Shown: positions 14,954 to 48,421, counted from the stretch's first letter. The stretch is 54,920 nt of DNA from a virus (IMGVR_UViG_3300025410_000024:1-54920), one strand, 5' to 3'. Notes: generated by a model not told the origin, from the letters alone. Program-made: numbers and translations.

Positions 14954-15222
14954 AAATTTTGCGCAGTAAATTTTTGACTGTGTATATAGAGGTTTATGCC
15001 CGGTCATACATTGATCTATACGCTAGTACTAGATCATCTAGACTGTATATGTACTGTATTTCTACTGTGTGTTATACTGTGAATATATAGTATAAAGAGT
15101 ATATAAGAGTTAGACCCACTCCGATAAAAAGGGTTTACCGATTTTTTTGCGCTTCGCGCTTCGCGTTCTTGGGCCTAATCTAACCCAATCTGAGCTAGGA
15201 CTACACGCTAATAAATAAGTGT

Positions 15223-16326
15223 ATGACATTACCATCTTATCCCAGTTCTCTAAGTTTAAACCAGATTGAGCAGGAATTTACCTGCAATGGATCATACTGT
15301 AGCCTGTGTAACCCAAAATCATTGAGCGAATTTTACGCTTCTCCCTGTGGGAGAGTTGTCAGCGGTACAATTGGTTATCCCAATGGTGTAGCTACTCCTA
15401 TACCCAGTTCGGGTGCTTTGAGCATCGATAACTTCCACGGGGCCAAGGCAGCCTGTATGCTTGTACTTAACAGCACACAATCTTGGACTGTGCCCGCGGG
15501 CGCTAGTTGTATAACTGTACTACTAGCCGGGGGAGGAGGGGGTGGGGGCTCTACTGTAGGTCATGGTGGTGATGGTGGCGGGGGTGGGGGCGCCGGCGGA
15601 ATAGTTGCCACAACACTATCAGTTAATCCCGGAGATACTTACTGTGTTGTGGTTGGTGGTGGGGGTGCCGGGGGCAGTGCTACTACATTAGGAGATTGGG
15701 GTAGTAATGGTGGATATACCTGTTTTTGCGGACCGGGTGGAAGTTGGCTTGCAGGAGGCGGCGGCGGAGGGGGTGGCTCACACTACGGCGGTTATGGCTA
15801 TAATTATTCTGGAAGAAACGGAGCCAGTGGTGGAGGAGCCAGTGCGTACTTTGGCAATACTTATAATTGGACTCCGGGGGCAGCCACCTATGGGATACAA
15901 GGTAACCGAGGCGGTTGTCAATGCGACAACGGCACAAATGGATCAGGTGGCGCAGTGTGTACTCCTGGAGGAGACTACGGGCAAGGCACCGGAGGACAAG
16001 GACTTCATTTTTATTCAGTGTCCGCTCCTGGATGCTATTGTGTTGGTGGGGGTGGGGGCGCCGGCGGAGGATTCACCGATAGTCCTAGCGGATTTACTCC
16101 CTCTAGTATATTCGGACAAGGCAAGCCAGGTGGACAAGGATACGGAGCCGCTGGCGGAGATGGGGCCGCGGCCACCGGAGGAAACGCACTACCTGGAGCA
16201 GATGCTGTGGTTAATCGAGGAGGTGGAGGTGGAGGCGGAGGTGGACACTTTTATGATACCAACGACGGAGCCGGAGGCGGGCAAGGTGGCTCGGGTGTAG
16301 TAGTAATTGCACTAGGTCGACCCTAA
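15223..16326 (+). CDS. glycine-rich, Cys-enriched virion/fibre-like protein
   Basis: Repeated GGGGGG/GAGG tracts, C-terminal GGSGVVVI; TAAATA late promoter 15212-15217. Confidence 0.8.
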   Translation: MTLPSYPSSLSLNQIEQEFTCNGSYCSLCNPKSLSEFYASPCGRVVSGTIGYPNGVATPIPSSGALSIDNFHGAKAACMLVLNSTQSWTVPAGASCITVLLAGGGGGGGSTVGHGGDGGGGGGAGGIVATTLSVNPGDTYCVVVGGGGAGGSATTLGDWGSNGGYTCFCGPGGSWLAGGGGGGGGSHYGGYGYNYSGRNGASGGGASAYFGNTYNWTPGAATYGIQGNRGGCQCDNGTNGSGGAVCTPGGDYGQGTGGQGLHFYSVSAPGCYCVGGGGGAGGGFTDSPSGFTPSSIFGQGKPGGQGYGAAGGDGAAATGGNALPGADAVVNRGGGGGGGGGHFYDTNDGAGGGQGGSGVVVIALGRP

Positions 16327-16337
16327 GGATTAAAATT

Positions 16338-16784
16338 ATGGCACATTATGCTAAAATAGAAAAAGGTATAGTACAAACAGTTATTGTTGCAGATGCTGAC
16401 AATATTGCTGGAGCCGACGGTACTTGGATTCAGGTCAGCTACAATACTCGCGGTGGAATACATTATGGTCCTGATGGACAGCCTGATGGCGGAGTTGCAT
16501 TGCGTAAAAATTATCCCGGAATAGGTTGGTGCTATGATTCTGTGCTAGATTGTTTTTATCCACCAAGGCCTTTTCCTAGTTGGACATTGGATACTGACAC
16601 CGCTATGTGGAATCCTCCCATACCTAGGCCCACGGAACTACCCCCACAACCTTCGGGTTCTCAAAGAATAATAGACTGGAGATGGTTTGAACCTGAACTA
16701 ACCTGGGTCCCTGCAGATCAAATCTTTTCAAAGATTTCTGAGTTCCGAACTTCAAAACTAACTATTCCAACCACACAACTATAA
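16338..16784 (+). CDS. fibre-associated protein, possible assembly chaperone
   Basis: MAHYAKI...WIQVSYN...LRKNYPGIG...FYPPRPFPSW pattern following a Gly-rich gene. Confidence 0.65.
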   Translation: MAHYAKIEKGIVQTVIVADADNIAGADGTWIQVSYNTRGGIHYGPDGQPDGGVALRKNYPGIGWCYDSVLDCFYPPRPFPSWTLDTDTAMWNPPIPRPTELPPQPSGSQRIIDWRWFEPELTWVPADQIFSKISEFRTSKLTIPTTQL

Positions 16785-16799
16785 AAAAGGACAATAACA

Positions 16800-17192
16800 A
16801 TGGCAGATCCACAAGTACAAATTGGCTCAGTATCTAACATATATTCAAGACAAACTTTGTTTGTAAATGCAGGGGACAGTGAAACTCAAACATACACATT
16901 TGATAATCTAACCTTGTTGGCCACAGGACAGGTATCTGTGACTGTAAACGGTACTACCACAAATTTTACAGCACCTCATATGATTTATATACAGGCCAAT
17001 AAAACTCATCAGATCACTGCATTGGTAGATAATACATTGGCTTTTTCTGTTCACGTGCTTAGAGATTACACTGACGCAGTTTTAGATCCTTCAATGATTC
17101 CTCAAGGAATTAGCCCACTGGTGTTAAGTCAACCTATACTGTCGCAATTGCCAAATATAAGTTGGTTTGTTAATCCACCACCATCTGTGTGA
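16800..17192 (+). CDS. cupin-fold protein, apparently lacking metal ligands
   Basis: AGD...FDNLTLLATGQVSV...FTAPHMIYIQANKTHQI. Confidence 0.6.
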   Translation: MADPQVQIGSVSNIYSRQTLFVNAGDSETQTYTFDNLTLLATGQVSVTVNGTTTNFTAPHMIYIQANKTHQITALVDNTLAFSVHVLRDYTDAVLDPSMIPQGISPLVLSQPILSQLPNISWFVNPPPSV

Positions 17193-17697
17193 ATTTGATT
17201 TTTTCAAACAGGTCTGTTAGTGTCTGGAGTGCCTGGTTGTAGTCTTTGCTGACCTTGACTGCTATTCCTTTGGCTCGGGTCCATTCTTCACAGTTGCTAG
17301 TACGGTCATCTACTAGTATATCTCCTTGATCACAGTGTACGTGTTTATCGTCTGAATAAGGGCCAAAGCGTACACGAATATCTGGGTAATAGTCGTGAAT
17401 CCACAGTATTTTATCGTGGAAAACATCAGGCATATCGTTGTTACGCGGGATAGCAGTTAATATATACAATTTCCAATTTAGTTCATCACGGAATCGTCGA
17501 GCTAGATCTATCATAGCATCTGCCTGAGGCATCTTGGGCAGGTTCCTATAAAAATTAGGATGGCTCTTTAACTTACTCCAACTAGCATTGTCCCAACGTT
17601 CTTGTTGCGGATGTGTTTTTTCTTTTTTTATTATTTCGCGGGCGCGAGTATCAAAGTCAGCTACTACGCCGTCCATATCTATATAAATTGTTGGCAT
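17170..17697 (-). CDS. HAD-family 5'(3')-deoxyribonucleotidase
   Basis: IYIDMDGVVADF, ILTA, ILVDD; start corrected to MPTIY. Confidence 0.85.
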   Translation of the reverse strand: MPTIYIDMDGVVADFDTRAREIIKKEKTHPQQERWDNASWSKLKSHPNFYRNLPKMPQADAMIDLARRFRDELNWKLYILTAIPRNNDMPDVFHDKILWIHDYYPDIRVRFGPYSDDKHVHCDQGDILVDDRTSNCEEWTRAKGIAVKVSKDYNQALQTLTDLFEKIKFTQMVVD

Positions 17698-17704
17698 TGA
17701 ATTC

Positions 17705-18397
17705 CTATATACTAAGTTCTTGATCGTGTAATTTATCAATTAGTGTTAGAATACCAGCTAGTGTGTCATCATTGCGAAGGCTTTTATAAACTAAATTCGG
17801 AATACTAAATTCTCCTGCTTTTGTACTGTGCAATCCTTGCTTCCTGTACATACGCAGTATTTTTACAGCCTTGCGACAAATTATTAAATTTCCTGTTTTA
17901 ATGGCCTGTGCCAGAATCTTTTTCCAAACACTGACCATATGCTCTAGTTCTTTTTGATCGTACTCGGGAATAGCCGAACTGGGTTTTTTAATCCAACGTT
18001 CTTGTAATATGCTGTAGGTACTACTTACAGCAGGTTCATTAGAATTTTCAATATACAATTCTACAGGAATACCGTGCACAGATATATTGTAGTCTTTTTT
18101 ATACAGTAATCTTTTAGTATCAAACAATTCATCAACTTCTCTATCACATTGAACAGAACCGTAATCTGCTATGATATGCAGATCAAGATCACTTTTATTT
18201 GTGTAGGTATAGTTAGCGTTCCCGCCACTTACTACAATATCAACAACCTGTACAGGAACATCAACAAACGTTATAAAATCTTCGGCAATGCGTAATAAAG
18301 CTCCGCGCACAGAACTTTTCAATCTTTCTCCGTCCCAGAGCTCGGGGTTAAGTACTTTATTATGGCCAATGGGTTTTTCGAATTCACGTATTTGCAT
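17705..18397 (-). CDS. pol-beta-superfamily nucleotidyltransferase-like protein
   Basis: SGGNANY...SDLDLH...VELY; late promoter 18405-18410. Confidence 0.7.
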   Translation of the reverse strand: MQIREFEKPIGHNKVLNPELWDGERLKSSVRGALLRIAEDFITFVDVPVQVVDIVVSGGNANYTYTNKSDLDLHIIADYGSVQCDREVDELFDTKRLLYKKDYNISVHGIPVELYIENSNEPAVSSTYSILQERWIKKPSSAIPEYDQKELEHMVSVWKKILAQAIKTGNLIICRKAVKILRMYRKQGLHSTKAGEFSIPNLVYKSLRNDDTLAGILTLIDKLHDQELSI

Positions 18398-18428
18398 GAT
18401 CAAATATTTATCGGATTAAATATGTTAT

Positions 18429-18989
18429 ATGAACAAGAAAAAGTACACAGGACATCTATTAGTTTCAAATCCTCTTAACCCTAGAGATGAATTAGAACAA
18501 AGCGTGATTTTAATAGTTACGCATACTGATCAACTAGGAATAGGATTACAAATAAATAACCCTCAAGAAGATCTAGATCTTGGAAAAATAAGCACAGGTA
18601 TGGGGCTTCCATTTTATTCAAAAGATCCTGTATATTACGGTGGTAATATGAATCAAAATAAAATTCACGTTATACACAGTCTAGATTGGCGCAGTCTTAG
18701 TACTGTACAGTTAACCAAAGATATTGGAATTACCAACGATATATCTATATTGAGTGCAATTAGTCAAGGTGAAGGCCCTGAGTTTTACAAAGCCTGTTCA
18801 GGATATTGGTTATGGGAAGAAGGTCGATTAGACATTCAACTAGATCCTAGAAATCATCTAGAGCACGAGCCACATAAATGGGAAATTGCTCCAGCGAATA
18901 TAAACAATGTATTCAAAATACATCCAGATGAACTTTGGGAAAGAAGCATTGAAGCTTCTGCCCGTTATCATACCAGCACCTGGCTTTAA
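18429..18989 (+). CDS. YqgE/AlgH (DUF179) family protein
   Basis: GHLLVS...SVILIVTH...GLQINNP...YYGG...GYWLW..G.L. Confidence 0.8.
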   Translation: MNKKKYTGHLLVSNPLNPRDELEQSVILIVTHTDQLGIGLQINNPQEDLDLGKISTGMGLPFYSKDPVYYGGNMNQNKIHVIHSLDWRSLSTVQLTKDIGITNDISILSAISQGEGPEFYKACSGYWLWEEGRLDIQLDPRNHLEHEPHKWEIAPANINNVFKIHPDELWERSIEASARYHTSTWL

Positions 18990-20449: not shown

Positions 20450-21449
20450 TGCTCATTCCTTCTAATTTTTTCTTGAGTAGATTTATTTTTATCTCTCCCG
20501 ATACCTTGTAATGCAGAATTGTGGTTAATACATATAGGCGCCCATATTTTTTCATTGCATCAGAAACATCTTTAACATCATCGCCCCAAGGTGGTAAACT
20601 AGCCGACCAATTATTAGCAATCGCGGCTTTGAGTAATTTAGCTCCGGGTTTGTCTCTATCTGGTACTACAATAACTTCTCTACCTAATGCGTTCAATCTT
20701 GTAATCTGAGTTTCATTTGGTTCATTATGCATAATTGCACATCCGTCTACTGCTATTGCGTCAAACTGCCCTTCAACTACAATAACATATTTTCTATCAA
20801 CAGTTTGACGATCAATATTGAATACATATCCAGGTTGTGCATCTGTAAGATACTTTGGTTTACCATCTGTGATTTTTCGACCAGTGTATCCAACTATTTT
20901 ACCTTCGTTGTAAAAAGGAATCAATATTCTATCTATATATCCTGGAGAAGGACTCCAAAAGAAATTATCCTTTATAGGATCAAATCCTCTATCTAATATA
21001 TATTGATATATGTCAACTAGTTTAGATGCATACTCTTCTGGTAAATCCGAATTAGCCCATTCTGTTAAAGTTAATGTACCGTCTGGCAATGCTACTTCTT
21101 TAAGTTCAAACGTTAATGTTTTTTTGACAACAGGTTGATCATCTTTGATCTTTAGTGCTACTAAATTTAATTTACCAATGTCGGATTCATTAACTCCGAT
21201 CCATTTGAATAAATTTTTGGTATTTTTACTTAATAATTTTCCTGGACTCCACCCTGCCTTGAATCCACAATTAAAACAATGATATTGGAAACTACCATCG
21301 TGCCCTGTTAATACTCCACCGCGCTTTCGAGTATCTTTTGCCTCTCCATTATTATGACAACAGACTGCATCGAAGCTAATCCATCCGCTAGGAGTTGCTT
21401 TTCGTTTCGCCGGCAGTAACACCATTAGAGTTGTCTGTATCTCGTTCAT
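20442..21449 (-). CDS. DNA primase (T4 gp61-like)
   Basis: Zn finger (CC...HCFNC); TOPRIM VEGQFDA, PDRD, KD. Confidence 0.93.
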   Translation of the reverse strand: MNEIQTTLMVLLPAKRKATPSGWISFDAVCCHNNGEAKDTRKRGGVLTGHDGSFQYHCFNCGFKAGWSPGKLLSKNTKNLFKWIGVNESDIGKLNLVALKIKDDQPVVKKTLTFELKEVALPDGTLTLTEWANSDLPEEYASKLVDIYQYILDRGFDPIKDNFFWSPSPGYIDRILIPFYNEGKIVGYTGRKITDGKPKYLTDAQPGYVFNIDRQTVDRKYVIVVEGQFDAIAVDGCAIMHNEPNETQITRLNALGREVIVVPDRDKPGAKLLKAAIANNWSASLPPWGDDVKDVSDAMKKYGRLYVLTTILHYKVSGEIKINLLKKKLEGMSNE

Positions 21450-22266
21450 TCTTTATTATAGCATAATCTGCACGTCTTGTCAATGTACTTGGATCCACAG
21501 CAACATAGTTTTTGCCTTGCAGGTCTTCAACATCATATTCAAAATATGGATAGAACATATAATTTTCAATTCTACAAGTAGGTGGATTATTAAAAATATT
21601 ATGTACATTCCACCCCCAAGCAGGAATACCTCCCCACTTCTTATCGAATATATCTTGTCCGTGTTCTAGATAATGCTGTCTAGGTCCTGGCCCTAAAAAC
21701 GGTCTTCTTGCAACTGCTACAGTTGGATTCCAAACTCTCCAATGATGAAAATCATTGATTGAACTTTTATCTCTGTTATATAACCAAGCTCGCAGTAAGA
21801 AGTCACCTTCGTAGTTACCTAAGGTACACATCCTTTCATCGTATAATCCTATTTTACGAATTGCTTCTGGTAATACACTGATAAAACAATCACCCCAGCT
21901 ACATTGATACAATGTATATTTTTTATGTATGTCATCTAAAAGATGTTTCCAATCTTTTTCCCAAAGACAGTCATCTTGCACTAATATAATTTGATCACAT
22001 AAGGGATTTAATAGATTTCCAAAACCAAGAACTAGTGCTTGATTCCAATCTCTTGCAGGAGTACCACAACCCCAGTTTGCTCTTAACGTTTGATGATGTA
22101 CCTTAACTCGATCTTTGAATTCATCATTTAAACTAAAAATTCTTGAATGATTATTGATGACATTGACTTCGATTTCTCTAGGGTCAACATAACTATCAAA
22201 AAGACTTTTTAGATTATTATTAAGATCGTCAGGTTTAGCATAAGTTAAAATGAAGATTTTTATCAT
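21388..22266 (-). CDS. GT-A (family 2-like) glycosyltransferase
   Basis: IFILTY...VINN...WNQAL...ILVQDD...IGLYDE...EGDFLLR. Confidence 0.75.
   Translation of the reverse strand: MIKIFILTYAKPDDLNNNLKSLFDSYVDPREIEVNVINNHSRIFSLNDEFKDRVKVHHQTLRANWGCGTPARDWNQALVLGFGNLLNPLCDQIILVQDDCLWEKDWKHLLDDIHKKYTLYQCSWGDCFISVLPEAIRKIGLYDERMCTLGNYEGDFLLRAWLYNRDKSSINDFHHWRVWNPTVAVARRPFLGPGPRQHYLEHGQDIFDKKWGGIPAWGWNVHNIFNNPPTCRIENYMFYPYFEYDVEDLQGKNYVAVDPSTLTRRADYAIIKNERDTDNSNGVTAGETKSNS
21455..21483 (-). promoter_or_regulatory. sigma70 promoter for primase, inside the upstream gene
   Basis: Minus strand TTGACA-N17-TATAAT, 5 nt before the ATG. Confidence 0.8.
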
Positions 22267-22275
22267 TCATATATT

Positions 22276-23394
22276 TTAACTTCTATACAATACTTTGTCA
22301 AATGATCCGTAGTACGTTGGATCGTCATTGTTGCCAGATGCAGGAGCAGTTCCTGGAATATACATTACTCGAATGTAGGTAAACAAGCCATTGAAATTTA
22401 TATAATCAATACCATTGAACCTGTTATAATTTAAAGTTGCTACGGTTGCATACTTTCCAAAGTCTGATGCATTATTTGATAAAGTTGCTTGAATGTATAC
22501 AGTTCCAATATAGTTGGTCATATACATTGCTAATGTATGTAATGCTGTGTTACTTTTAAATTCTGGATAAGCATAAAACGGACCACTTTTATGTTCGTAC
22601 AAATATGTATCTTGATTATAACTTTTTAAGAAGCTAACTATTTCTTGACTAGGTTTTAATCGAGGATATACTTCTTCAGTAAGATGCACGGTTCCTGAAA
22701 TTCCGTAATATGTATTTGCATAAGCAGGCAAATATGTATTATCATTTGGATCTTGATATACTACACTATATGTATATTCTCCGCGCTCGAGATTAACAGT
22801 ATCACTTTCTGTGAATGTAAGTTCACCTAATCCTTTTAATCCTATTGTGTTGATTACAACTCCTGTACTTGTAGATACAGGTTTTAATGTATAATTGTTC
22901 AAAGTAACAATATTAGTGATGGGTGAAAAAACAGTAGATGTTGTTATTGAAGATGTAGTAACTGTGGTAACAATTGTAGCAATTGATCCTGTACCTATAC
23001 TTAAGATAGTGGAGTTGGCAGCAATACCATATCCAAAGACCGCTTGGCCTACTGATATATTAGAAACATCGTCGAACGTTAGCACCTGGCTAATACTACC
23101 TTGATTAGCATTAACATTTAAGTATATAGAATCATCTAATACTGTAAGTTCTTTTTGTAACACTAACTCTTGACTTGTATTATCAAACATATTGAATACA
23201 AAAGTTTGTGTATTGCTAATTGGTAATAATTTTTGATCACTGTTTTTAAACTGGATCCTTATCTTGTTTTTAATACCTTTTTGTATTTTTAAATCTCGTT
23301 GGTACATAACTCGGTTAATCCCTAAAACAGTTTCGTCCAAATCTAATATCACGTCGAGTGTATTTGGATATAAATAGATTGGTAAATTTTGCAT
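22276..23394 (-). CDS. putative virion structural protein
   Basis: Beta-rich with Thr-rich insert; late promoter 23400-23405. Confidence 0.6.
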   Translation of the reverse strand: MQNLPIYLYPNTLDVILDLDETVLGINRVMYQRDLKIQKGIKNKIRIQFKNSDQKLLPISNTQTFVFNMFDNTSQELVLQKELTVLDDSIYLNVNANQGSISQVLTFDDVSNISVGQAVFGYGIAANSTILSIGTGSIATIVTTVTTSSITTSTVFSPITNIVTLNNYTLKPVSTSTGVVINTIGLKGLGELTFTESDTVNLERGEYTYSVVYQDPNDNTYLPAYANTYYGISGTVHLTEEVYPRLKPSQEIVSFLKSYNQDTYLYEHKSGPFYAYPEFKSNTALHTLAMYMTNYIGTVYIQATLSNNASDFGKYATVATLNYNRFNGIDYINFNGLFTYIRVMYIPGTAPASGNNDDPTYYGSFDKVLYRS

Positions 23395-23414
23395 TATAAT
23401 ATTTATCTATAAAG

Positions 23415-26592: not shown

Positions 26593-26601
26593 AATATCCT
26601 T

Positions 26602-28469: not shown

Positions 28470-28470
28470 A

Positions 28471-28674: not shown

Positions 28675-28675
28675 T

Positions 28676-31811: not shown

Positions 31812-31827
31812 AAGTTATATTATACAT

Positions 31828-33598: not shown

Positions 33599-33609
33599 AG
33601 TCTATCTCC

Positions 33610-34674: not shown

Positions 34675-34707
34675 AAAAAGTGCATATAGTTAACTATACG
34701 CACTTTT
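34675..34707. terminator. bidirectional terminator-like hairpin
   Basis: AAAAGTGC-ATATAG-TTAA-CTATAC-GCACTTTT. Confidence 0.7.
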
Positions 34708-34745
34708 ATTTATTATTACAACCTAAAAGGTGTTTATAATATGGG

Positions 34746-37181
34746 TTATTTTGCCAAACCTGCTAATTTTAAAATATCTTCTTTTGGGTCCATTGCTTGT
34801 TTCATACCTTGTTTTGCTAAATGTTTGGCCATATTTTTATCTTTGATTGTATTTCCAAATTCATCTTTATGTGGGCCTGTATGTGTTGTATAAGGGGGAT
34901 TAAATGGAGGTGTTTCTTTTTTATCAGTTTTTTCTGAGTCTTGTTCACCTATGCCTTCTACTTTGGTTTTAATATTGCCTACTAATTCTTTTAAACGTGC
35001 TAGTCCATCTGTATGATCTACTGGACTAATTTGACCGTGACGTTGTTGCCATTCATTGGTAAGTTTTTCCATAAATGCTTCGGCCATTTTAGCAGCCTGC
35101 TCGCCTGCATCTTCTCCAAACTTTTCTGCAATAGCTTTTTTAACATCTAATGCAATACCTTCTTCTCCACGGAATGGGCCTACATTTGGGTTATCTCTAT
35201 TGTAAAAACTTTTAACAATTTTTGCTACTTCTTTGATCATTGCTTTTGGATCTGCATCTTCCATTGTGCCTACAGCATAACCATTCATACCTATATCATT
35301 ATTTTCAAATGCTGGCATAATTCCGTGAACTGTAGCAACACCCGATCCTCCTTGACCAGTAGGAGTTGTTTCCGTAGTCGGTTGTTCCTCTGGCGCACCG
35401 ACTTCTTGCGAAGCAGGTTCGGTTTCACTCATTCCTAATGCTACTGCTAATTCTGGATAATCTTCATTGGCCCAAATTTTAAAAACTTCAAGTGCATCAG
35501 TTGTAGAATCAACATTTGCCATATCTTTTAATTTTGTTTCTAAATCAGTGTCATCTAATCCAAATTCTTGAAAGAATTGAATAGCAGTTTGTCCGTCGAG
35601 ACCTAACTCTAATTCAGGGCCGCCTGATGTGCCTTGTGGTAATTGTAGTATTGCTTGTTTTAATTCTTCAATTTGATCGTTGGTTAATTTGCCTTGTTCT
35701 ACTGATTCGGCCCAAGATTCAAATGCATCTAGTTCATTCTCTTTAACTGATTCATCTGTTTCGGTATGACCGTGTATTAAACAATGTTCTTCACCTAACT
35801 CGTCACAAGTACACTCTGAACTTTCGCCTACATAAGTATCTAAATCAACCTTGTTTGCCTCGCTCATAATTTTATGCAACAGTGGGAAATATGCTGCCAA
35901 TTCTTCTTGGAAATTTGTTTGTGTAAATTTTTGTTTATATTCTTCCATAGCAACAGCATCTAGTTCAATGCTGTCGGTGACTGGTTCTTGAAATTCCGAC
36001 ATCCATTTTTCATAATGATGACGTTTACCTAATGCCTCAATTTGCGCCTTTAGTTCGTTAAGGCGGCCTATGGCTCGCTCTGTAATTCCTGTTGCATCAT
36101 CGTGCAAGGTGGCTTTGTGTATTTTTCTTTGAAATTCTTGTAATTGTGCGATTTGTTCGCTCATTTTAATAATTGCTTTGCCTGCTGGATCATGTGGAAT
36201 GCCACCGTGATCTACGTGTTGTGCCATGGCGAATGCACCAGCTGGGTGAATGAAAGGATATTTAAATCTTTCCCCATCGTGATTCTGAATAAAGATTGCC
36301 TTGATGTTTTTCTTTTGACTACGAGCACCTGGATACATTTCATCTACTGCTCGAGCATGACGAACAATAACTTCTGTTTGTCCTTTTACTGCACGGCTAG
36401 TTTTCTTTGTGCTTTTTTGATTCCAACGGCTTTCTCCTAGATGTTGCTGTGTCCTGCTTTTTAGCATCGATAATAATTTTTCAGCAACCTCTTCAGGATA
36501 ATCTTCGTATGCGCTACCTAAATCATATTGTAATTTATCAAATTCCTTTTGGATATAGCGACCAACAGGATGTGTTATAGAATCCCCGGCATCTACTATT
36601 TTCAAAATAGTATCACTATTAAATTCTGGGCTGTTTACTACTTTACCAACTTTTTGCATCAAGGCATTGTTATCAACACTAGGACTCATTCTTGATATCA
36701 AACGATCACGTGGAGTGTTTGTTAATTCGCGTCCAGCGTTTTCTGATACGCCTTTTTTGATTTTTTTAGTTTCGTTCATATTCATAGTAGGTTCTTCCTT
36801 GGGGCCTTGCGTAGTAGCAAGATGTTGAAAATCGTTTTTGTCAAGATTTGTTTTAGCAATGTCTCTAGTATCAAATCTCAGTAATCTTCGCATAGCAAAA
36901 AATCTCATTTCTTTTAAGAAACTGTACCACTCTTTTTTAGCAGGGTCATCTTGATTTTCTGTAATGCCTTGGCTATAGTAAACCTTTAGGCTACCTAGAT
37001 CGTTTAGGCTAATGCTAACACGGCCTAGATTGTTGCCTTCTAAGACAAAGTCAAAATCAAAGAAACGAGCCTCTGCGGGATCAATGGTAACTGCACCTGT
37101 TTCGTCGCCCATTTCTAAATTTGAGAAACGTGAGCGGACTTTGTCAAACAGGTCTTGGGAAATAATTTGAATAGGTTTCAT
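34746..37181 (-). CDS. large acidic putative head protein, possibly protease-processed
   Basis: 811 aa, late promoter 37187-37192, many hydrophobic-x-E sites. Confidence 0.7.
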   Translation of the reverse strand: MKPIQIISQDLFDKVRSRFSNLEMGDETGAVTIDPAEARFFDFDFVLEGNNLGRVSISLNDLGSLKVYYSQGITENQDDPAKKEWYSFLKEMRFFAMRRLLRFDTRDIAKTNLDKNDFQHLATTQGPKEEPTMNMNETKKIKKGVSENAGRELTNTPRDRLISRMSPSVDNNALMQKVGKVVNSPEFNSDTILKIVDAGDSITHPVGRYIQKEFDKLQYDLGSAYEDYPEEVAEKLLSMLKSRTQQHLGESRWNQKSTKKTSRAVKGQTEVIVRHARAVDEMYPGARSQKKNIKAIFIQNHDGERFKYPFIHPAGAFAMAQHVDHGGIPHDPAGKAIIKMSEQIAQLQEFQRKIHKATLHDDATGITERAIGRLNELKAQIEALGKRHHYEKWMSEFQEPVTDSIELDAVAMEEYKQKFTQTNFQEELAAYFPLLHKIMSEANKVDLDTYVGESSECTCDELGEEHCLIHGHTETDESVKENELDAFESWAESVEQGKLTNDQIEELKQAILQLPQGTSGGPELELGLDGQTAIQFFQEFGLDDTDLETKLKDMANVDSTTDALEVFKIWANEDYPELAVALGMSETEPASQEVGAPEEQPTTETTPTGQGGSGVATVHGIMPAFENNDIGMNGYAVGTMEDADPKAMIKEVAKIVKSFYNRDNPNVGPFRGEEGIALDVKKAIAEKFGEDAGEQAAKMAEAFMEKLTNEWQQRHGQISPVDHTDGLARLKELVGNIKTKVEGIGEQDSEKTDKKETPPFNPPYTTHTGPHKDEFGNTIKDKNMAKHLAKQGMKQAMDPKEDILKLAGLAK

Positions 37182-37194
37182 ACGCTTATTTATA

Positions 37195-38781
37195 TTAAAA
37201 TGTGTTTATATAAATGGGCAAAGGCATTATCCACTCATCCTCTACTTCTTCCCGCATTTTATCGTAAATTGCAGGATCCCATTCTTGTAATATAATTGCC
37301 ATACGTAGGGCAAGTAAAATACTACTAACTAGGTCATCGTGTGTTCCTGTTTTACCTGAAAAACTTATGCCTTTGGCAACAAAAGTTTTAAGTTCACTGA
37401 TCAGAGACTTTGAATTTAACTTCATTCTGTTGCTTTCGATAAGGTGTTTTAGTTTAGCACAGATAGAGATTTTACTGGTATGTGTTGTATTAAACCCTTT
37501 TCTAAATCTGCGGACGTGACCTTTCTTTATTGGTTCACTTAAAAATAATCCACGAATACTTTCCTCACCTATTTCATTGATAGTAACAAGTGCCGCTTCT
37601 CCTACAGTATTATTTTCAACAGAGTAATATAAACTTGCCTGCGATCCTTTGTCAGCACACTCTTTGTCAATAAAATTACAAATATCTCTTAGTATTCTAA
37701 CCTGCCCCTGTATCGGGGTAGTATTATGATGCCACTCTGCAACTTGTTCAAAAGATGGTAATTCTAATACCTGTATGGCCGCAGGATCTCCACCGGTGCC
37801 TAAACTAGGATCTAGTGCTACGATATATGTACGCTTGGGATCTATTTTTTTATACCAACGACATTGACCCATTTTCATAATAGGTTCTTTGCCTTCTAAG
37901 TCTGCTAATTTTATAGCACTTATAAGTGTTTCATCAAATACCAAGAATTCACAATCGTGTTCTCGACGGAAACGTTCTTCTCCAATACGACTACGTTCAA
38001 CTTCAGCCCAAGCTTCGTCTCGTTCAGGATGTTCACTCCAATGAGCCTTGAATGGAAAAAATCCATTTTTTCCTGTAAGTGTGCTGTTTCCGAATTCATC
38101 TGTACGCTTATTTGCTTCGTGCCATATTTGTGCAAATTGATCCTCGTCACTGTTAGGAGTGCTTGTAATAATTGCTTTACCACCAGTAGCAAGTGTAGGT
38201 GAAATTGAAGTCCAGAATTCACTGGCTACATTAGGCGGAACAAACGCAAACTCATCTGCGTATAGTAATGATAGTGACATACCACGACCTGTTGTTTCAG
38301 TTGTTGTCTGTGCTACAATACGACTACCATTTTCAAACTCTATACTTTGTTTGTTATAACTTGTACAACCTGCACGAATATGATCTGGACACATTTCGTA
38401 GGCATAACGAATACGTGCCATAATTTCCTGTGCGCCAGTATATTTGTGTGCGGCAATTAATATTGTACTATCTGGTATGAACATCGCAAACCATAATAGA
38501 TAACCTGATGCAGTAGTGGTCTTACCTGTTTGTCTAGGTAACAAATTTATATTAAATCTATGTTGGTGATAGCTGTCAATTAATCTACGCTGATATTCAA
38601 ATGCTTCGTATTTTAACTTACCTTTAACAGGATGTTGAATAAAGAAAAAATTGTCTAAAAAATGATGCGGACCATTAACAGGGTCCATACATTTACCCAG
38701 GTCAATAATATCTTGTTCAGTAAACTTTTGTGTACTGTGCGGACTTTTAACTAACTTACCGTCTAAATTTTTTGATCCCAT
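37195..38781 (-). CDS. terminase large subunit (gp17-like)
   Basis: PRQTGKT, LLYADEFAF, TSTPN, ALDPS.G.GGD, HDDLV. Confidence 0.96.
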   Translation of the reverse strand: MGSKNLDGKLVKSPHSTQKFTEQDIIDLGKCMDPVNGPHHFLDNFFFIQHPVKGKLKYEAFEYQRRLIDSYHQHRFNINLLPRQTGKTTTASGYLLWFAMFIPDSTILIAAHKYTGAQEIMARIRYAYEMCPDHIRAGCTSYNKQSIEFENGSRIVAQTTTETTGRGMSLSLLYADEFAFVPPNVASEFWTSISPTLATGGKAIITSTPNSDEDQFAQIWHEANKRTDEFGNSTLTGKNGFFPFKAHWSEHPERDEAWAEVERSRIGEERFRREHDCEFLVFDETLISAIKLADLEGKEPIMKMGQCRWYKKIDPKRTYIVALDPSLGTGGDPAAIQVLELPSFEQVAEWHHNTTPIQGQVRILRDICNFIDKECADKGSQASLYYSVENNTVGEAALVTINEIGEESIRGLFLSEPIKKGHVRRFRKGFNTTHTSKISICAKLKHLIESNRMKLNSKSLISELKTFVAKGISFSGKTGTHDDLVSSILLALRMAIILQEWDPAIYDKMREEVEDEWIMPLPIYINTF

Positions 38782-38795
38782 AATATTATTTAATG

Positions 38796-38823
38796 AAAAA
38801 AATAGCCTCCGAAGAGGCTATTT
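38796..38823 (-). terminator. rho-independent terminator
   Basis: Minus strand AAATAGCCTC-TTCG-GAGGCTATTTTTTT. Confidence 0.9.
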
Positions 38824-38844
38824 GGATTGTATTTGTTTTAACAA

Positions 38845-39699: not shown

Positions 39700-39703
39700 A
39701 ATA

Positions 39704-40333
39704 TTAATTTCCGTTAAGTGCTTTTACAACATAAGTTCCTTGATCTTTAGCGATAGGGCTAGTTGTATTCTGTGGAAAATCATTTGATGTTTTTCCTGGG
39801 TTTTTCATAATGTCATCTGGCGTAGGAGTAGGGATTTGTTCTCCCATTTCTTTACGTTGTAATTTCAAAATGTCATTTAATTCTTTTACAAATCCAGAAT
39901 TGTATTTGTCACCATAGTAATCTTCAAATTGTGGATTGCCAGCTTCTTTATAATCTGGATCATCTAATAAAGCACCTTCACGTTTTTCTGTAGGTGTTTG
40001 ATATTCTTCGCTTGGCTCGCCTGGACGACGAACCACTAGTTTTTGTTTACTAACACCTAATTCTGTGCTTAGGTATTCAGTTAGTTCTTGCTGTGTTGTA
40101 GGATAATCTAACGTAACTTCGTAGATGCTCACTTCGCAATTTCTAACCTGTGGAAAATCCAAAGGTAATGCTTGGATAGGAGTAGTAGCAGACTTTTTAA
40201 AACTGTTTAAGACATAACGTCCTAACAATGTTTTTAAAGAATCTTCTTGCTCGGTAGTAAAATCTCCGGCGATTTTAACGCGGAAAGGATACTGTTTTTT
40301 TGACTCGGATAGGTATTCTTTGAAGTTTTTCAT
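39704..40333 (-). CDS. putative head-associated protein
   Basis: N-terminal MKNFKEYLSE resembles the T4 capsid-targeting peptide. Confidence 0.65.
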   Translation of the reverse strand: MKNFKEYLSESKKQYPFRVKIAGDFTTEQEDSLKTLLGRYVLNSFKKSATTPIQALPLDFPQVRNCEVSIYEVTLDYPTTQQELTEYLSTELGVSKQKLVVRRPGEPSEEYQTPTEKREGALLDDPDYKEAGNPQFEDYYGDKYNSGFVKELNDILKLQRKEMGEQIPTPTPDDIMKNPGKTSNDFPQNTTSPIAKDQGTYVVKALNGN

Positions 40334-40339
40334 AGTAAG

Positions 40340-40816
40340 TTATTTATTCATATTTTTAATTTTTTCTAGAATGGAGTTACGGTCTGTAATAATAAACCCT
40401 TGTCCTTCTACAGTATTTCCGTCTCCGCCTTCCCCGTGCTTTTTATCAATAGCTAGCTTTTTTAGTTGTAAATCAACCATTTTTAGCTTTTTGTCAATTT
40501 TATTGGTTTTTGCTTGAATAGCGGCATTCATCATTTGCGCGGCTACTTCAAACATTCTAACACCGTGCCTAGGATCAACATTCATGCCTAAATCATATAG
40601 TGCATCGTAGGCTTCTTCTGCTTTCTTAGATAACGCATCTAACTCAGCATCGGCCATATCTCCTAGTCCTTGCACCCTAGGAAGTGCGGCAGCAATTTTG
40701 TCAAATTCTTCTAATTTATCTTGTAGATTTATTACAGGAACAGGAGTAGCTGTAGGAGGAATTACCAGCTCCTCATCAGGTGTTAGATCAAATAATTCTT
40801 CTAATTTTTTAGTCAT
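40340..40816 (-). CDS. terminase small subunit-like (gp16-like)
   Basis: Helical, PR...FEVA...; near terL. Confidence 0.55.
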   Translation of the reverse strand: MTKKLEELFDLTPDEELVIPPTATPVPVINLQDKLEEFDKIAAALPRVQGLGDMADAELDALSKKAEEAYDALYDLGMNVDPRHGVRMFEVAAQMMNAAIQAKTNKIDKKLKMVDLQLKKLAIDKKHGEGGDGNTVEGQGFIITDRNSILEKIKNMNK

Positions 40817-40824
40817 AATTGTAC

Positions 40825-41633: not shown

Positions 41634-41635
41634 TA

Positions 41636-42769
41636 TTATTTCTTTGTTGTTATATTAGATAGTAATGCGTTAGTGGTTCCGTCAGTGCTACGATTTGAAT
41701 ATATAGTAATTCCATTATTTCCAACACCGCCTGTGTTAGATACATTAGATGGCTGTGATAGTCCAGCGGCAATAGATCCTGCTAGTATACCCGATGCAAT
41801 GCTATATCCTTCTTTGGCAACACTAGACTTGTTAAGATTTCCAGCATTCTGTACCAATGTTTTTGCCTGTAATGCAACACCTAGATAATCTAATGGATTG
41901 CTTGCTGTTGCTAATAATCCATTTTCTCCAAATATTGTATTAGCCCCGTCAATTACTCCGCCTGGTCCAAAAAGATTTCCACTTCCGCCTATTCCAATTG
42001 GGCTAGGTGTAGTATCATAATATACCGGAGCGAATCCAACAGGACTTTTACCTCGAACAATCTTTCCTTTTTTATATACCACAGTCTCGTATGCTGTTTG
42101 CATTTTATTTGTTAATGTTCTACTATCTTCTTGGGAAACTGTATCGTGCGTCCATTCTGTAATCATAGGATTAACAAGAGTAATTTGCGTGAAATCTGCA
42201 ACACCGTGCCCTTTGTGCATAACGTAGATATCAATGCTATCAAAGAATGGAATAGATTGAAAATTATCTAAACCATATGCATAATTGTACTGCTTATATT
42301 TTGTATCTCCAAATTCTGTTACTTTTGATTTACCAGAGATAGAACCATACACGCTGTCCATATAATAATATTGATAATAATTTTGCCAGAGATCATTTGT
42401 TATATCACTATTATCATCATGAAACTCTATACTAACAGGACTATAAGTTAATTTTGTTTGTACAACAGTTTTTCTATTATACTGATTTAGTGTTTCTGTT
42501 CCTGTACTAAATTTAGGAAGCTCTATTCTTTTAACTAATAATCCAACATCTTTCCTTCCTTTTTCTAGCCAACTTTTATCAATTACTGCGGATGGATTGA
42601 TATTAAAATTAACAAAGTATAGAAAATTAACCTTAGGTGTTCGTGCATAATTATTACGAACATAAAGTCTGTCGGCGTGTTGGTAGTCTTTCATACTGGC
42701 ATTGCCGCCAGAATCGCCAAGTATTCCACTTGCCGCACTACCTAAAAAATTTGTGAATGCATTACTCAT
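41636..42769 (-). CDS. tail-tube-fold baseplate protein (gp54/gp48-like)
   Basis: VKRIELPKF...NQYNRK...YSPVSIEFHDD; adjacent to tube gene. Confidence 0.7.
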   Translation of the reverse strand: MSNAFTNFLGSAASGILGDSGGNASMKDYQHADRLYVRNNYARTPKVNFLYFVNFNINPSAVIDKSWLEKGRKDVGLLVKRIELPKFSTGTETLNQYNRKTVVQTKLTYSPVSIEFHDDNSDITNDLWQNYYQYYYMDSVYGSISGKSKVTEFGDTKYKQYNYAYGLDNFQSIPFFDSIDIYVMHKGHGVADFTQITLVNPMITEWTHDTVSQEDSRTLTNKMQTAYETVVYKKGKIVRGKSPVGFAPVYYDTTPSPIGIGGSGNLFGPGGVIDGANTIFGENGLLATASNPLDYLGVALQAKTLVQNAGNLNKSSVAKEGYSIASGILAGSIAAGLSQPSNVSNTGGVGNNGITIYSNRSTDGTTNALLSNITTKK

Positions 42770-42786
42770 AATAATATTTAGCCAAT

Positions 42787-42814
42787 AAAAAAGCCTGGGG
42801 TTTAAGCCAGGCTT
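42787..42814 (-). terminator. terminator after tail tube gene
   Basis: Minus strand AAGCCTGG...CCAGGCTTTTTT. Confidence 0.85.
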
Positions 42815-42830
42815 AGTAGAGCGTAATTGT

Positions 42831-43466
42831 TTAACCGCCGATAGCTAATGTACGTACTGTACGACCAACTGTTTCGCCGATTCCAACTGCATTTCCTGAA
42901 GAATCCACTTGTAGTGCATTGTCGTAACAGATTGATAGAGAAATGTCCATTGGATCTGTTGCGTTACTATAATCACCACCTTGGTATGTTGCTTGTTTAA
43001 TCCAACATCCGTGATATTCAAACGCTTCTAATACAACTGGCTCATACGCTCCGTTGCCCCCGTCTAATATTTCAACACGCATTAGGAACTTATAATCAAT
43101 ACCAGATGCGGCACCTGACTGCTCAAAGAAGTCAAATTGTTTCTGCATCTGTTCACCAACTTTACGTGTTACTGCATTAGTCACATCATCACGTAATGTA
43201 AGTGTTGCATCTGTAAAACTATGTTTTCCTGCAAGTTTTACTGTACTATTGTAAACAGCTAACTTGATTTCATCAAAACTAATTACAGGACGAGTTACGT
43301 TCATAACCTGTTTAGTAAGTTCTGTTGCAGGTGTACCAGCTATGCCAAATCCGTCTAAGGTAACGCGGAAACGATATCTTAGTTTTGGCATCAACAAACC
43401 TTGAGTATTAGAACTCTGATCTGTCGAAAGCGGTACTGTAAATCTACTTAAATTTGAAATTGGCAT
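42831..43466 (-). CDS. tail tube protein (gp19-like)
   Basis: RFRV...RP...KLAGK...TLRDD...GCW...YD; follows sheath. Confidence 0.88.
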   Translation of the reverse strand: MPISNLSRFTVPLSTDQSSNTQGLLMPKLRYRFRVTLDGFGIAGTPATELTKQVMNVTRPVISFDEIKLAVYNSTVKLAGKHSFTDATLTLRDDVTNAVTRKVGEQMQKQFDFFEQSGAASGIDYKFLMRVEILDGGNGAYEPVVLEAFEYHGCWIKQATYQGGDYSNATDPMDISLSICYDNALQVDSSGNAVGIGETVGRTVRTLAIGG

Positions 43467-43491
43467 TTAAATGCTCCTTGTTCTTTATTTA

Positions 43492-46400: not shown

Positions 46401-46518
46401 TTTCTTTATCTTGTGCTGTTGCAACGAATATAATCGGTGTACTTGATGGTGCGGCTGGAGTATAAAAACTCTCGTCGATAACGCTTACTTGTACGCCTGG
46501 TGAACCTAATGTGGCCAT
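43492..46518 (-). CDS. contractile tail sheath protein (gp18-like), enlarged
   Basis: SPGVQV..IDES, WFAPAG.RRG, INPI, DRINVARL, FEPND, EFIYI. Confidence 0.95.
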   Translation of the reverse strand: MATLGSPGVQVSVIDESFYTPAAPSSTPIIFVATAQDKENASGTGTAQGTIAANTGKVWLITSQRDLTDTFGTPLFYTDTNGNPLHGNELNEYGLQAAYSLLGASSSAYVVRADVDLGSLKGSTSVPTGAPMSGTYWIDTKSSLFGINEWNSGTNTFTVKTPLIIDDSNSATELMDGVPVDSFGQQGDYAVVVTSDNFTNYPNAVWYKTTASSNAWTEVGQTFDGGKQVVVSPHTQYPDFTSAGTTATTGSVWIKTTSPGYGSNWVVKYYNGSTQTWGTVSAPLYNSTVQAISKLDSVGGGKNIATGTIFVETDPDHYGINEDTPVAEFRVWRRNATSPTTITSAASTNYTSGTTSFTIRETLAESSSWSDSMSISWQGTTSTYVGQLLAQAVNTSGLINVTASFNAVTNRVTLTHALGGDIEITDFDNTPLSSAGFTAYDMSSKTGTANLYNAPASDGYGFIATNWKPLVYEALPTTPYTLPANDTLWYDTNLSSVDIMYHNGSQWTGYLNAFPDTDPNGPIVGATAPMTQSDGTDLMDGDIWVSTADIDRYGKDVYIWNGSTLTWDLQDVEDHTSPTGWVFADARWSSAGADSMETVTPIADLLVSNYVDPDVVDPALYPRGTRLWNLRRSGFNIKKYVAGYINILANNGENIMYENDPMSGYNTDRWVTVSPNDNNNVGTFGRLAQRGYIVSRMKATIDTNTDIRDTDTLVYNLIATPGYTETIANMVALNTDRGQTAFVVGDTPFRLAPTATTLYNWGKNTANALDNGEDGAVTYDNYMSMFYPSGYTTDNKGNNIVVPPSHMMLRTIVNSDAKSYQWFAPAGTRRGTVDNATSVGYIDSTGSFKTTAIYEGLRDTLHSVEINPIATIPGVGIVNFGQYTRSNGASALDRINVARLIAYLRRQLGILSKPFLFEPNDAQTRREIKAAAESLLIELVGQRALYDFIVVCDTSNNTPARIDRSELWLDIAIEPVKAVEFIYIPLRILNTGAIASGNLGAGFPGTNA

Positions 46519-46615
46519 TTGTCAATCTCCTTAGTGGATTACTTGTTTTATTTAGCCCGCATTATAAAAAATGCAGGTATTAAATACATATGAAAAGGGC
46601 ATAAAAAGGGCAGTA

Positions 46616-46951
46616 ATGAGAAAATTATGTAAAAAATGTGGTGAAAATCCAGTAGCAATCAATTATCATAAAGAAGGTCGTGCATTCTATAGATCAATGT
46701 GCGATCACTGTGCTCGCGGTTATAAAGAGAAAAGGCCACTTTGGGCACTTTCTGGATATAAGAAAAAATCTATATGTGATAGATGTGGATTTAAATCACC
46801 ACATCCTGAATCATTCAATGTATTTCACGTAGACGGAGAACTTACAAATTGTAAATTTACAAATCTAAAGACTGTATGCGCAAACTGTCAGAGAGTGCTA
46901 CATAAAGAGGGGGTTCGTTGGAAGCAAGGGGATCTTGTACCTGACTTTTAA
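46616..46951 (+). CDS. zinc-binding HNH-like protein
   Basis: Four CxxC pairs; HVDG..N...NL..VCANC. Confidence 0.75.
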   Translation: MRKLCKKCGENPVAINYHKEGRAFYRSMCDHCARGYKEKRPLWALSGYKKKSICDRCGFKSPHPESFNVFHVDGELTNCKFTNLKTVCANCQRVLHKEGVRWKQGDLVPDF

Positions 46952-47576
46952 TCATCGTTTGTAGTTGATCATATAGATCTTGTATAGATCCGTTATTATC
47001 TAATATATAATCAAATTTAGTGCCGACCCAACTTGTTTCACTTGCGTGTATTTTAAGTCTTTCTAATTTTTCTTTGCTAAGTGCCCAAGAAGTATTACCA
47101 TCTGGCCCTCTATTAACACTGACTGCGGCATCATACCATCTGGGTTCTGGACCGCGTACTACACGAATAACAATACCTCCGGCATCTTTGATTGATTTAA
47201 TCTCATTAGGAAAGCGGCAATCGCTGATAACAATATCGTCTTTTGAATTGCGGAGTTTATTTTCTAATGCGGCAATCCAAATATCATTGTGAAATGACTT
47301 GCGACATACTTCGGTGCCCCAGTATTGTAGAACCCATCGTGGTGTTAAATTGGGCATACCTAAACGCTCTGCCCACCAAGGATCTACTTGTTCTCGCCAT
47401 TCTCGGGCTTGTTTTGTCCTACCTTCGAGCAGATCTCTATCCCATCCAAACACCTGAGCAACAGCATCTTTTAAACTATTGGCAAAACTTTCTCTGCGAA
47501 ATTGATGAAAATTGCAAAGATAATCTGCTACTGTATCTTTACCTGAACTGATAAACCCGCATATTCCTACAATCAT
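46857..47576 (-). CDS. deoxynucleoside monophosphate kinase (gp1-like)
   Basis: GFISSGKDT, SFA..LK, TPR..LQ..GTE, DCRFPNE, HASE. Confidence 0.92.
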   Translation of the reverse strand: MIVGICGFISSGKDTVADYLCNFHQFRRESFANSLKDAVAQVFGWDRDLLEGRTKQAREWREQVDPWWAERLGMPNLTPRWVLQYWGTEVCRKSFHNDIWIAALENKLRNSKDDIVISDCRFPNEIKSIKDAGGIVIRVVRGPEPRWYDAAVSVNRGPDGNTSWALSKEKLERLKIHASETSWVGTKFDYILDNNGSIQDLYDQLQTMIKSQVQDPLASNEPPLYVALSDSLRIQSLDL

Positions 47577-47633
47577 AGTATCCCCTTGTGATACTATAAT
47601 TTATTACATTTTTATTATGATGTCAAGATTTGT

Positions 47634-48392
47634 TTAGCCAATTACAAACGTTAACGGAGTTCCGCCATCTTTGTAATTAATTAGATCTTGTTCTAGTATA
47701 TCAATATCGGCTTTTCCTTCTGCTTTGAGGGAAGCGCCGTTTAATTGTGTGCCGCCTTGTGGGCTAGCAATTGTGGCAAATTTCTCACGAGCCTCGCCTA
47801 ACATTATTTTACAGGTTGCCAAAGTATAATCACGTAACCATTGGCTAGCATATGGATCTTGTAATAGATTAAAGTCTGGACGATAATTATACATCCATAA
47901 TAATACTTCTTCAGAAGAGCGAGGACGTTGCATAATAGTCAATAATTTTGTAGTTTTATTAAATGTAAAATTAATATCACTACCAAACATTTTACCAACC
48001 TGCTTTTGATAACTAGCAAAAGCATAATATGTTGCTAACCCGCCCATATTTGTACTTGTTAACAAATAAGTATTAGAGTATGCAAGATTGAAAGGTTCAA
48101 ATAAACTTCCACCATCACCGCCGCCGGTACGTGAACCAATACTACGACGGAAAATTTGTCTAACTTCAGTGACTTCATTAGGTAGTAGGTAGTCATTTGT
48201 ATCTACTTCTATTGTTAGAAATCCAAAACTTTCTTCAGATGCATTACTACTTCTTTGTCTAAACTTATTTAAAGCACGGTCAATGGCGGTAGTATAGTGG
48301 ATAGGATCCAACTCAATATCAATCATACCGCTACCTAACATAGCTTGTACATAATCAATAACTTTTTGGCGTTCGTTTTCTGTATCAGTCAT
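47634..48392 (-). CDS. neck protein (gp13-like)
   Basis: LG...IDIEL...WLRDY.LA..K..LG..R.KF...GG..LNG. Confidence 0.85.
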   Translation of the reverse strand: MTDTENERQKVIDYVQAMLGSGMIDIELDPIHYTTAIDRALNKFRQRSSNASEESFGFLTIEVDTNDYLLPNEVTEVRQIFRRSIGSRTGGGDGGSLFEPFNLAYSNTYLLTSTNMGGLATYYAFASYQKQVGKMFGSDINFTFNKTTKLLTIMQRPRSSEEVLLWMYNYRPDFNLLQDPYASQWLRDYTLATCKIMLGEAREKFATIASPQGGTQLNGASLKAEGKADIDILEQDLINYKDGGTPLTFVIG

Positions 48393-48397
48393 ATGAA

Positions 48398-48414
48398 TAT
48401 TTAGCTTATAAATA
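48398..48414. promoter_or_regulatory. back-to-back late promoters
   Basis: TATTTA-GCT-TATAAATA: TAAATA on both strands, 5 and 7 nt from divergent ATGs. Confidence 0.75.
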
Positions 48415-48421
48415 CAATACT

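Follow-up and report, generated by a model that had tools for sequence, protein, structure and literature searches.

Late promoter boxes abutting start codons suggest leaderless late mRNAs in an uncultured T4-like jumbo phage

Results and Discussion

Late genes and their upstream boxes

The viral DNA analysed here, IMGVR_UViG_3300025410_000024:1-54920 (the window), is an entire viral entry of IMG/VR, 54,920 bases long and rated 15% complete; our subject is the hexamer TAAATA, which stands directly before the start codons of ten of its genes. Open reading frame (ORF) calling and PHROG scans place the phage in the T4 superfamily, with genes for a gp41-like helicase, primase, UvsX, UvsY, gp32 and the large terminase (TerL), and with structural genes for a tail sheath of 1008 amino acids (aa), a tail tube, a neck adaptor and a sheath stabiliser. 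Among cultured phages, the Pseudomonas jumbo phage PA5oct (287 kb, gene order shared) has the most similar TerL, at 56% identity; Sinorhizobium phage Phosso comes second with 48%, and the Rak2-like group third with about 43%. A megablast search of window positions 34700-48500 against cultured phages gave no match. Judged by these similarities, the window is a fragment of an uncultured T4-like jumbo phage related to PA5oct, with a full genome estimated at 300 kb at least (54.9 kb being 15%). The G+C content is 40-47% over bases 1-15,000, where small plus-strand early genes lie, and 29-38% over the replication and virion genes.

The original prediction had named ten sites of the form TAAATA-N5-7-ATG, and all are present where it placed them; we refer to them as fused sites. 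The spacer measures 5 nucleotides (nt) at the genes starting at 15223 (site 15212..15225, plus strand; 367-aa glycine-rich protein, PF21722), 23394 (23392..23405, minus; 372-aa virion structural protein), 37181 (37179..37192, minus; 811-aa protein, g37181, with the box filling the 13-nt gap after the TerL stop codon), 38781 (38779..38792, minus; TerL), 42769 (42767..42780, minus; 377-aa tube-like protein) and 48392 (48390..48403, minus; head-tail adaptor of the neck). It is 6 nt at 18429 (18417..18431, plus; 186-aa AlgH-like protein, DUF179, E 1e-21) and 7 nt at 18397 (18395..18410, minus; 230-aa protein, phrog_36119), 40333 (40331..40346, minus; 209-aa protein, g40333, with the box overlapping the stop codon of the upstream gene) and 48422 (48409..48424, plus; HNH/NUMOD3 homing endonuclease). 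Two divergent pairs are formed by 18397 with 18429 and by 48392 with 48422, and their intergenic regions of 31 and 29 bp each amount to two back-to-back boxes. The fused ATG is the first possible ORF start in nine of the ten cases; at 18397 a TTG lies two codons upstream, within the spacer.

An intrinsic terminator with a 10-bp stem and a run of seven T's ends 3 nt before the TerL box (38793..38823, minus strand; also called by the consensus scan), and the consensus terminator scan further marks a terminator-like hairpin with a T run just upstream of the box of the tube-like gene (42781..42814, minus strand). At several late genes the box is set further back and accompanied by a Shine-Dalgarno (SD) sequence. 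As had been claimed, this is the arrangement before the tail sheath (start 46518; TAAATA-N30-ATG with AAGGAG, 46516..46554, minus), the tail tube (start 43466; TAAATA-N19-ATG with AAGGAG, 43464..43491, minus) and a 79-aa protein (start 52464; TAAATA-N32-ATG with AGGAG, 52462..52502, minus), to which we add a 111-aa Cys-rich ORF divergent from the sheath gene (TAAATA-N29-ATG with AAGGG, 46581..46618, plus). The late genes at 39699, 40816, 41262 and 41633 have neither box nor SD. To call leaderless late transcripts systematic, as the original prediction did, overstates the case: about half of the late boxes are fused, namely 10 of the roughly 16 that stand in promoter position in the window and, in the 221-kb relative G001 introduced below, 24 compared with about 30 that have leaders.

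Some of these genes are unusual in their own right. The AlgH-like protein (gene 18429-18989) belongs to a host-type family of putative regulators and lies behind a fused late box. The homing endonuclease gene (48422-49162, plus), which has a fused late box of its own, is flanked by the neck gene and the next virion gene. The Cys-rich ORF (46581-46951, plus), previously uncalled, encodes several CxxC motifs, has no Pfam match and shows a repeated AAAAGGGCA motif behind its TAAATA-N29; its 3' end overlaps a dNMP kinase gene on the opposite strand, an arrangement kept in a large relative (G001, position 179299, minus strand).

Enrichment and conservation of the fused form

TAAATA occurs only 32 times on the two strands of the window, versus 90.4 +/- 9.5 copies expected from 100 dinucleotide-preserving shuffles, all of which had 32 or more. 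This threefold depletion is the signature of a signal kept away from places where it does not belong. Ten of the 32 copies are followed, at 5-7 nt, by an ATG beginning an ORF of 80 or more codons, compared with 11 of 735 copies of eight control hexamers of like composition; for the frame-shifted hexamer AAATAT, which overlaps the box, the fused position accounts for 6 of 94 copies. A chance origin of the fused pattern is excluded.

Relatives were drawn from a TerL-based scan of IMG/VR that returned 527, and the best 80 loci of the 527 were used (TerL 72-86% identical, 1.09 Mb in total). Gene-by-gene counts cover these 80 loci and the contig G001, a 221-kb relative that is 62% complete, while family searches were made in five large relatives, all of them fragments. 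The histogram of box-to-ATG distances that the original prediction had proposed as a check is peaked and not flat: among 892 boxes in the 80 loci, 202 lie at 5 nt, 27 at 6 and 58 at 7 (287 at 5-7 nt), and secondary modes at 17-22 and 30-31 nt correspond to tube and sheath. Gene by gene, the fused form is kept for TerL in 72 of 74 relatives, for g37181 in 75 of 77, for the tube-like protein in 52 of 54, for the neck protein in 20 of 22 and for g40333 in 44 of 62. The leader form is also kept, with a long leader before the sheath in 44/44 relatives (SD in 43) and an SD before the tube in 56/58. In G001, 24 of 199 boxes are found 4-7 nt from an ATG and about 30 at 13-45 nt, mostly with SD-like motifs.

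The g40333 family departs from this pattern, since 17 of its 62 relatives have a leader of at least 8 nt with no strict SD. Among the distinct sequences listed, seven from more distant relatives have the box 17-19 nt upstream, with AGGAA or a sequence close to it coming next; in two others the distance is 8 nt. As both arrangements occur among relatives, fused and leader forms interconvert in evolution. Homologues of the homing endonuclease with a matching N-terminus were seen in only 2 of 81 sequences (the 80 loci and G001, many of them short), and there the gene has a leader and an SD.

A candidate T4-type late promoter

As described in passages of PMC2988020, the 8-bp late box of phage T4, TATAAATA, lies about one helical turn upstream of the start, A(-13) being a variant of its first T; the promoters show no conservation at -35, and late transcription employs the sigma factor gp55, the co-activator gp33 and the sliding clamp gp45. 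With the first T at -13 the box spans -13 to -6, so that the sixth base after the box is +1. On this geometry +1 coincides with the A of the ATG when the spacer is 5 nt; at 6-7 nt there would be either a 1-2 nt leader or, given some slight flexibility, an unchanged start. The window shares with T4 the A/T box core upstream of virion genes on both strands, and a gp55-like gene is present in relatives; it differs from T4 in that TAAATA alone is conserved and about half of the boxes abut a start codon. The boxes of the window precede late genes (terminase, sheath, tube, tube-like protein, neck and virion structural proteins), and those of G001 precede genes for a baseplate wedge, fibres and a holin-like protein.

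The gp55 family (phrog_234) was matched in four of the five large relatives, with E values from 1e-26 to 4e-27. The matching frames (L089-L092, in G001 and G003-G005) are 301-321 aa long, compared with 185 aa for T4 gp55, and as profile positions of about 10-169 alone match, these putative sigma factors carry extra sequence. A similar association is described for CBB and GAP32, Rak2-like phages in which the motif ATAAATA precedes structural genes and a gp55-like sigma factor was found, though not gp33 and gp45 (passages of PMC5259590). These related jumbo phages (TerL about 43%) thus resemble the window clade in motif and sigma factor; the passages concerned are silent on the distance from motif to start codon.

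The resemblance to the T4 box also bears on the idea that TAAATA close to an ATG acts in translation, serving long mRNAs as a ribosome standby site or as an enhancer rich in A and U. Bacteria are known to have such enhancers, to which ribosomal protein S1 binds, and a distance of 5-7 nt is like that of an SD. The same hexamer, however, is also found before SD-led genes at 19-32 nt, and elsewhere on the two strands its copies are threefold too few; it matches the T4 late box in phages whose relatives encode gp55, and a terminator just upstream, as before TerL, would remove the long mRNA. We therefore consider a role in translation highly improbable.

Signs that transcription starts at the AUG

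TerL offers the closest view of a fused site, with 47 distinct upstream sequences among 51 loci. TAAATA is invariant in 47/47, and the spacer behind it is 5 nt long in 43, 4 nt in two, 6 nt in one and 7 nt in one, and varies freely in sequence (entropy 1.3-1.6 bits at positions -5 to -2 and 0.7 at -1). In 44 of the 47, a hairpin with seven T's ends 3 nt before the box. In an alignment of 43 sequences, 99% of cells are paired, compared with 37-61% in slid controls, and three of the ten pairs have changed on both sides, giving 16 double-change cells versus 2.2 +/- 1.3 in shuffles, of which 0 of 500 reached 16. The box is the sole conserved element between this terminator and the ATG. A terminator directly before the box implies that TerL is shielded from transcription coming from upstream, and neither member of a divergent pair has an upstream gene on its own strand from which transcription could read through.

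The fused start codons differ from SD-led ones in several respects. The base at -1 is a pyrimidine in 95% of the 5-nt class (n=205), 97% of the 6-nt class (n=30) and 100% of the 7-nt class (n=63), compared with 58% of 359 SD-led starts, which fits the usual preference of transcription start sites for a pyrimidine at -1 and a purine at +1. ATG is the start codon at 310 of 312 fused sites and at 359 of 394 SD-led controls (homologous sites included), a near-exclusivity expected if ribosomes must recognise a 5'-terminal AUG. The spacers of 5-7 nt are A/T-rich, free in sequence and hold no SD. Over the first 36 nt, the mean fold energy of the fused class is weaker than that of the comparison class, significantly so in the window (-0.74 vs -2.59 kcal/mol, p = 0.004) and in G001 (-1.24 vs -2.35 kcal/mol, p = 0.03) but not in the Pelagibacter phage HTVC008M (-1.08 vs -1.90 kcal/mol, p = 0.26), a difference that is confounded with, and partly reflects, the lower G+C of the fused class.

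Such comparisons presuppose that the starts are placed correctly. They were called from ORFs only, and at 21449, a gene with a host-type promoter discussed below, an in-frame ATG follows 8 codons downstream, so true starts might be sought further into the genes behind ordinary ribosome-binding sites. Coding periodicity and conserved N-terminal peptides (e.g., MKPIQIISQDL and MSNAFTNFLGG) nevertheless begin at the fused ATG, with variation highest at third codon positions, which identifies the fused ATGs as true starts, and in HTVC008M 12/12 sites match the deposited annotation. The probability that wrong start calls have created the pattern is close to negligible.

A more serious alternative accepts the boxes as real late promoters but takes their fusion to the ATG as a by-product of squeezed intergenic space, with most protein made from longer polycistronic transcripts by translational coupling or by SD-independent internal initiation, so that leaderless transcripts would be of minor importance. 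The gaps are indeed tiny, with the ATG of g37181 only 13 nt after the TerL stop codon and the box of g40333 reaching into the preceding stop; four neighbouring late genes do without box or SD, and the leader forms of g40333 (17/62) show that both forms are viable. Compaction alone, on the other hand, would lead one to expect neither the restriction to ATG nor the pyrimidine at -1. It also sits poorly with the covarying terminator before the TerL box, the terminator-like hairpin before the tube-like gene and the divergent pairs, which lack an upstream gene on the same strand, and lack of room is not obvious in a genome estimated at 300 kb or more. On balance we regard this alternative as unlikely. 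Leaderless initiation would accommodate the geometry, conservation, insulating terminator, ATG-only rule and -1 pyrimidine, all of which are plain in the genomes themselves.

Occurrence in other phages

To compare phages, occurrences of TAAATA-N5-ATG were counted against the same pattern read backwards as a control. The window gives 6:0 and the five large relatives 13:5, 13:3, 13:3, 8:5 and 10:2. Other phages yield 3:2 (Phosso), 7:10 (fHe-Yen9-04) and 5:8 (GAP32), and the counts are 5:3 and 3:3 in the cyanophages S-PM2 and Syn9, 2:2 in KVP40 and 0:1 in RM378. T4, whose late genes have SD leaders, shows a weak enrichment (10:5). In HTVC008M the ratio is 14:4, and 12 of the 14 sites fall exactly on annotated starts of coding sequences. 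The counts indicate that the design is absent from the nearest cultured relatives, PA5oct and GAP32 among them, and likewise from T4 and the two cyanophages, but present in a distant cultured T4-like phage.

HTVC008M resembles the window in its two-mode design, with fused sites beside SD-led genes, and a terminator-box-ATG module stands before its gp092 as it does at the TerL gene of the window. It belongs to a lineage distant from the window clade (147 kb, filed under Kyanoviridae), its box is extended to ATAAATAGT, and its annotation includes gp55, gp45, gp33-like, RegA and bS21 genes.

Leaderless mRNAs as such are well known, for example that of lambda cI from PRM and those of Actinobacteria and Deinococcus-type genomes, where a -10 box lies a few nt before the start. 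The fused sites share with them a -10-type element 5-8 nt before the ATG, the lack of an SD and a strong preference for ATG. They are set apart by a promoter of a putative phage late sigma class, by their service to a temporal class of virion genes and by their mixture with SD-led genes in operon-like clusters. Full-text searches, which included HTVC008M, returned no paper on T4-type late promoters abutting start codons. Papers on AR9 and phiKZ use the word leaderless only to state that 5' untranslated regions are long or that no leaderless transcript was seen, and the PA5oct, CBB and OM43-phage papers, in the parts covered, make no mention of a box-on-ATG design. In the passages covered of the transcriptome paper on PA5oct (PMC7318152), only sigma-70-like promoters are reported and the term leaderless occurs 0 times.

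Leaderless initiation as the preferred explanation

We posit that TAAATA is the core of a phage T4-type late promoter that would be read by the host RNA polymerase together with a phage gp55-like sigma factor. At the ten fused genes, the first transcribed base would be the A of the AUG or a base 1-2 nt ahead of it, and the resulting mRNAs would be translated without SD contact, presumably through recognition of the 5'-terminal AUG. Other late genes, such as sheath and tube, would use the same box 19-32 nt upstream combined with AAGGAG, and a few host-type (sigma-70) promoters appear to be fused to start codons likewise. With a probability of roughly 70%, T4-type late promoters fused to the AUG produce leaderless or near-leaderless late mRNAs at these ten genes. 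The core of the original prediction, namely a placement of T4-type late promoters that would start transcripts at the AUG or no more than 2 nt from it, is well supported by the comparative evidence. Where exactly transcription starts, which sigma factor directs it, how the messages are translated and whether this affects protein amounts are inferences.

Several points weigh against this explanation. The start sites, in the window phage as in its relatives, are deduced from comparative sequence signals, and the counts over relatives are non-independent, as they include homologous sites and as G001 contains locus L062. Of the eight positions of the T4 box, the first two are not conserved here, which leaves six. 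No gp55 match was found in the window itself, a 15% fragment, and the gp45 clamp family (phrog_223) was matched in 0 of the five relatives, all of them fragments. The late genes at 39699, 40816, 41262 and 41633 show that SD-independent internal initiation occurs in this phage anyway. Finally, PA5oct, the nearest cultured relative, shows no enrichment of the fused pattern (15:12), and before its homologous sheath, tube and neck genes the boxes lie 20-40 nt upstream with an SD. Although syntenic, PA5oct was for this arrangement of its boxes set aside as a model.

T4 late transcription and leaderless translation are each textbook matter, but are not known to have been described in fused form. If transcription does start on the AUG, a large and widespread group of uncultured aquatic phages would express about half of its late genes without ribosome-binding sites, and gene callers relying on such sites would misplace starts in these genomes. 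With its cultured Pelagibacter host, HTVC008M is a system in which the design is open to direct test.

Initiation mode and protein amounts

The original prediction further held that leaderless initiation sets the stoichiometry of late proteins. A correlation with protein abundance does exist, yet it is loose and has exceptions. In the window, both bulk tail proteins, sheath and tube, are SD-led, while the fused genes encode the terminase, the neck protein, the minor tube-like protein, virion proteins, the AlgH-like protein and the homing endonuclease. HTVC008M has fused sites before the tape measure, DNA end protector, head closure, tail tube cap and a baseplate wedge subunit, as well as a fibre-like protein, a tail completion protein and, besides some accessory genes, a small regulator. 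In the same phage the major head protein, sheath, tube, portal, prohead protease and gp089 have strong SDs. Exceptions include, in G001, SD-led genes for a 1845-aa fibre, two HNH endonucleases and a holin-like protein, together with leaders that lack an SD motif before the genes of a 1127-aa baseplate wedge protein and of a 982-aa tail fibre; in HTVC008M, two baseplate proteins are SD-led. Going by these assignments, the correlation of fused sites with low-copy and of SDs with bulk proteins is real but loose. Leaderless initiation lowers yield in E. coli, and by analogy it may do so in the hosts of these phages.

We tentatively suggest, as a possibility that may well not hold, that at least two deep aquatic T4-like lineages (the PA5oct-related jumbo clade and HTVC008M) use a two-mode late code, leaderless for low-copy or enzymatic assembly proteins and SD-led for bulk structural proteins, so that stoichiometry would be partly written into the mode of initiation. 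Late changes to the ribosome, through bS21 in HTVC008M and in the large relative G002, might tune it further. If true, the split would be a simple and testable rule for the ratios of viral components.

No support was obtained for the claim that fused genes escape SD-targeting control. RegB (phrog_1323) and RegA (phrog_242) were matched in 0 of the five large relatives, which as these are fragments is not evidence of absence, and RegA is annotated in HTVC008M. A bS21 gene (PF01165) was detected in one of the five, G002 (L123, G002:C1:142974-143132, 55 bits), and is annotated in HTVC008M; neither the window, nor the 62%-complete G001, nor the other large relatives gave a match. With bS21 in only one of five relatives and not in the window, no link between bS21 and the fused design can be claimed.

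Host-type promoters and the early region

Fusion to the start codon is also seen at host-type promoters. The two sigma-70 TATAAT elements named in the original prediction are present, one before the primase gene (start 21449; TTGACA-17-TATAAT-N5-ATG, 21447..21483, minus) and one before the gene of a 397-aa protein (start 31811; TTGAAG-17-TATAAT-N7-ATG, 31809..31847, minus). Two more had been overlooked, before a 292-aa protein (start 22266; TTGACA-17-TAAAAT-N6-ATG, 22264..22301, minus) and a 153-aa early protein (start 7353; TTGACA-17-TATAAT-N6-ATG, 7318..7355, plus). The sigma-70 -10 hexamer ends at -7, which would call for a spacer of 6 nt; those of the four fused promoters measure 5, 6, 6 and 7 nt. 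For the 31811 family, TATAAT lies 5-7 nt before the ATG in 10 of the 26 distinct relatives listed. A further 17 near-consensus sigma-70 promoters in the window lie 20-37 nt upstream of their genes and are followed by a stereotyped AGGAG leader. The upstream 292-aa ORF (21388-22266) shares its final 62 nt with the primase ORF (start 21449, within the region 20442-22266, minus strand), which places the primase promoter within the coding sequence of the 292-aa protein.

In the early region (window 1240-12873, plus strand), a near-identical cassette of TTGACA-17-TATAAT and a leader of about 28 nt (ACACACATACACTAAAAAGGAGC...) precedes at least 12 small ORFs. The G+C of this region is 5-10 points above the rest of the window, and the same TTGACA-17-TATAAT cassette is found at one end of G001 (216-221 kb). 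A single tRNA-Met (CAT) gene lies at 351-427 (plus strand), the sole Rfam or ARAGORN match in the window.

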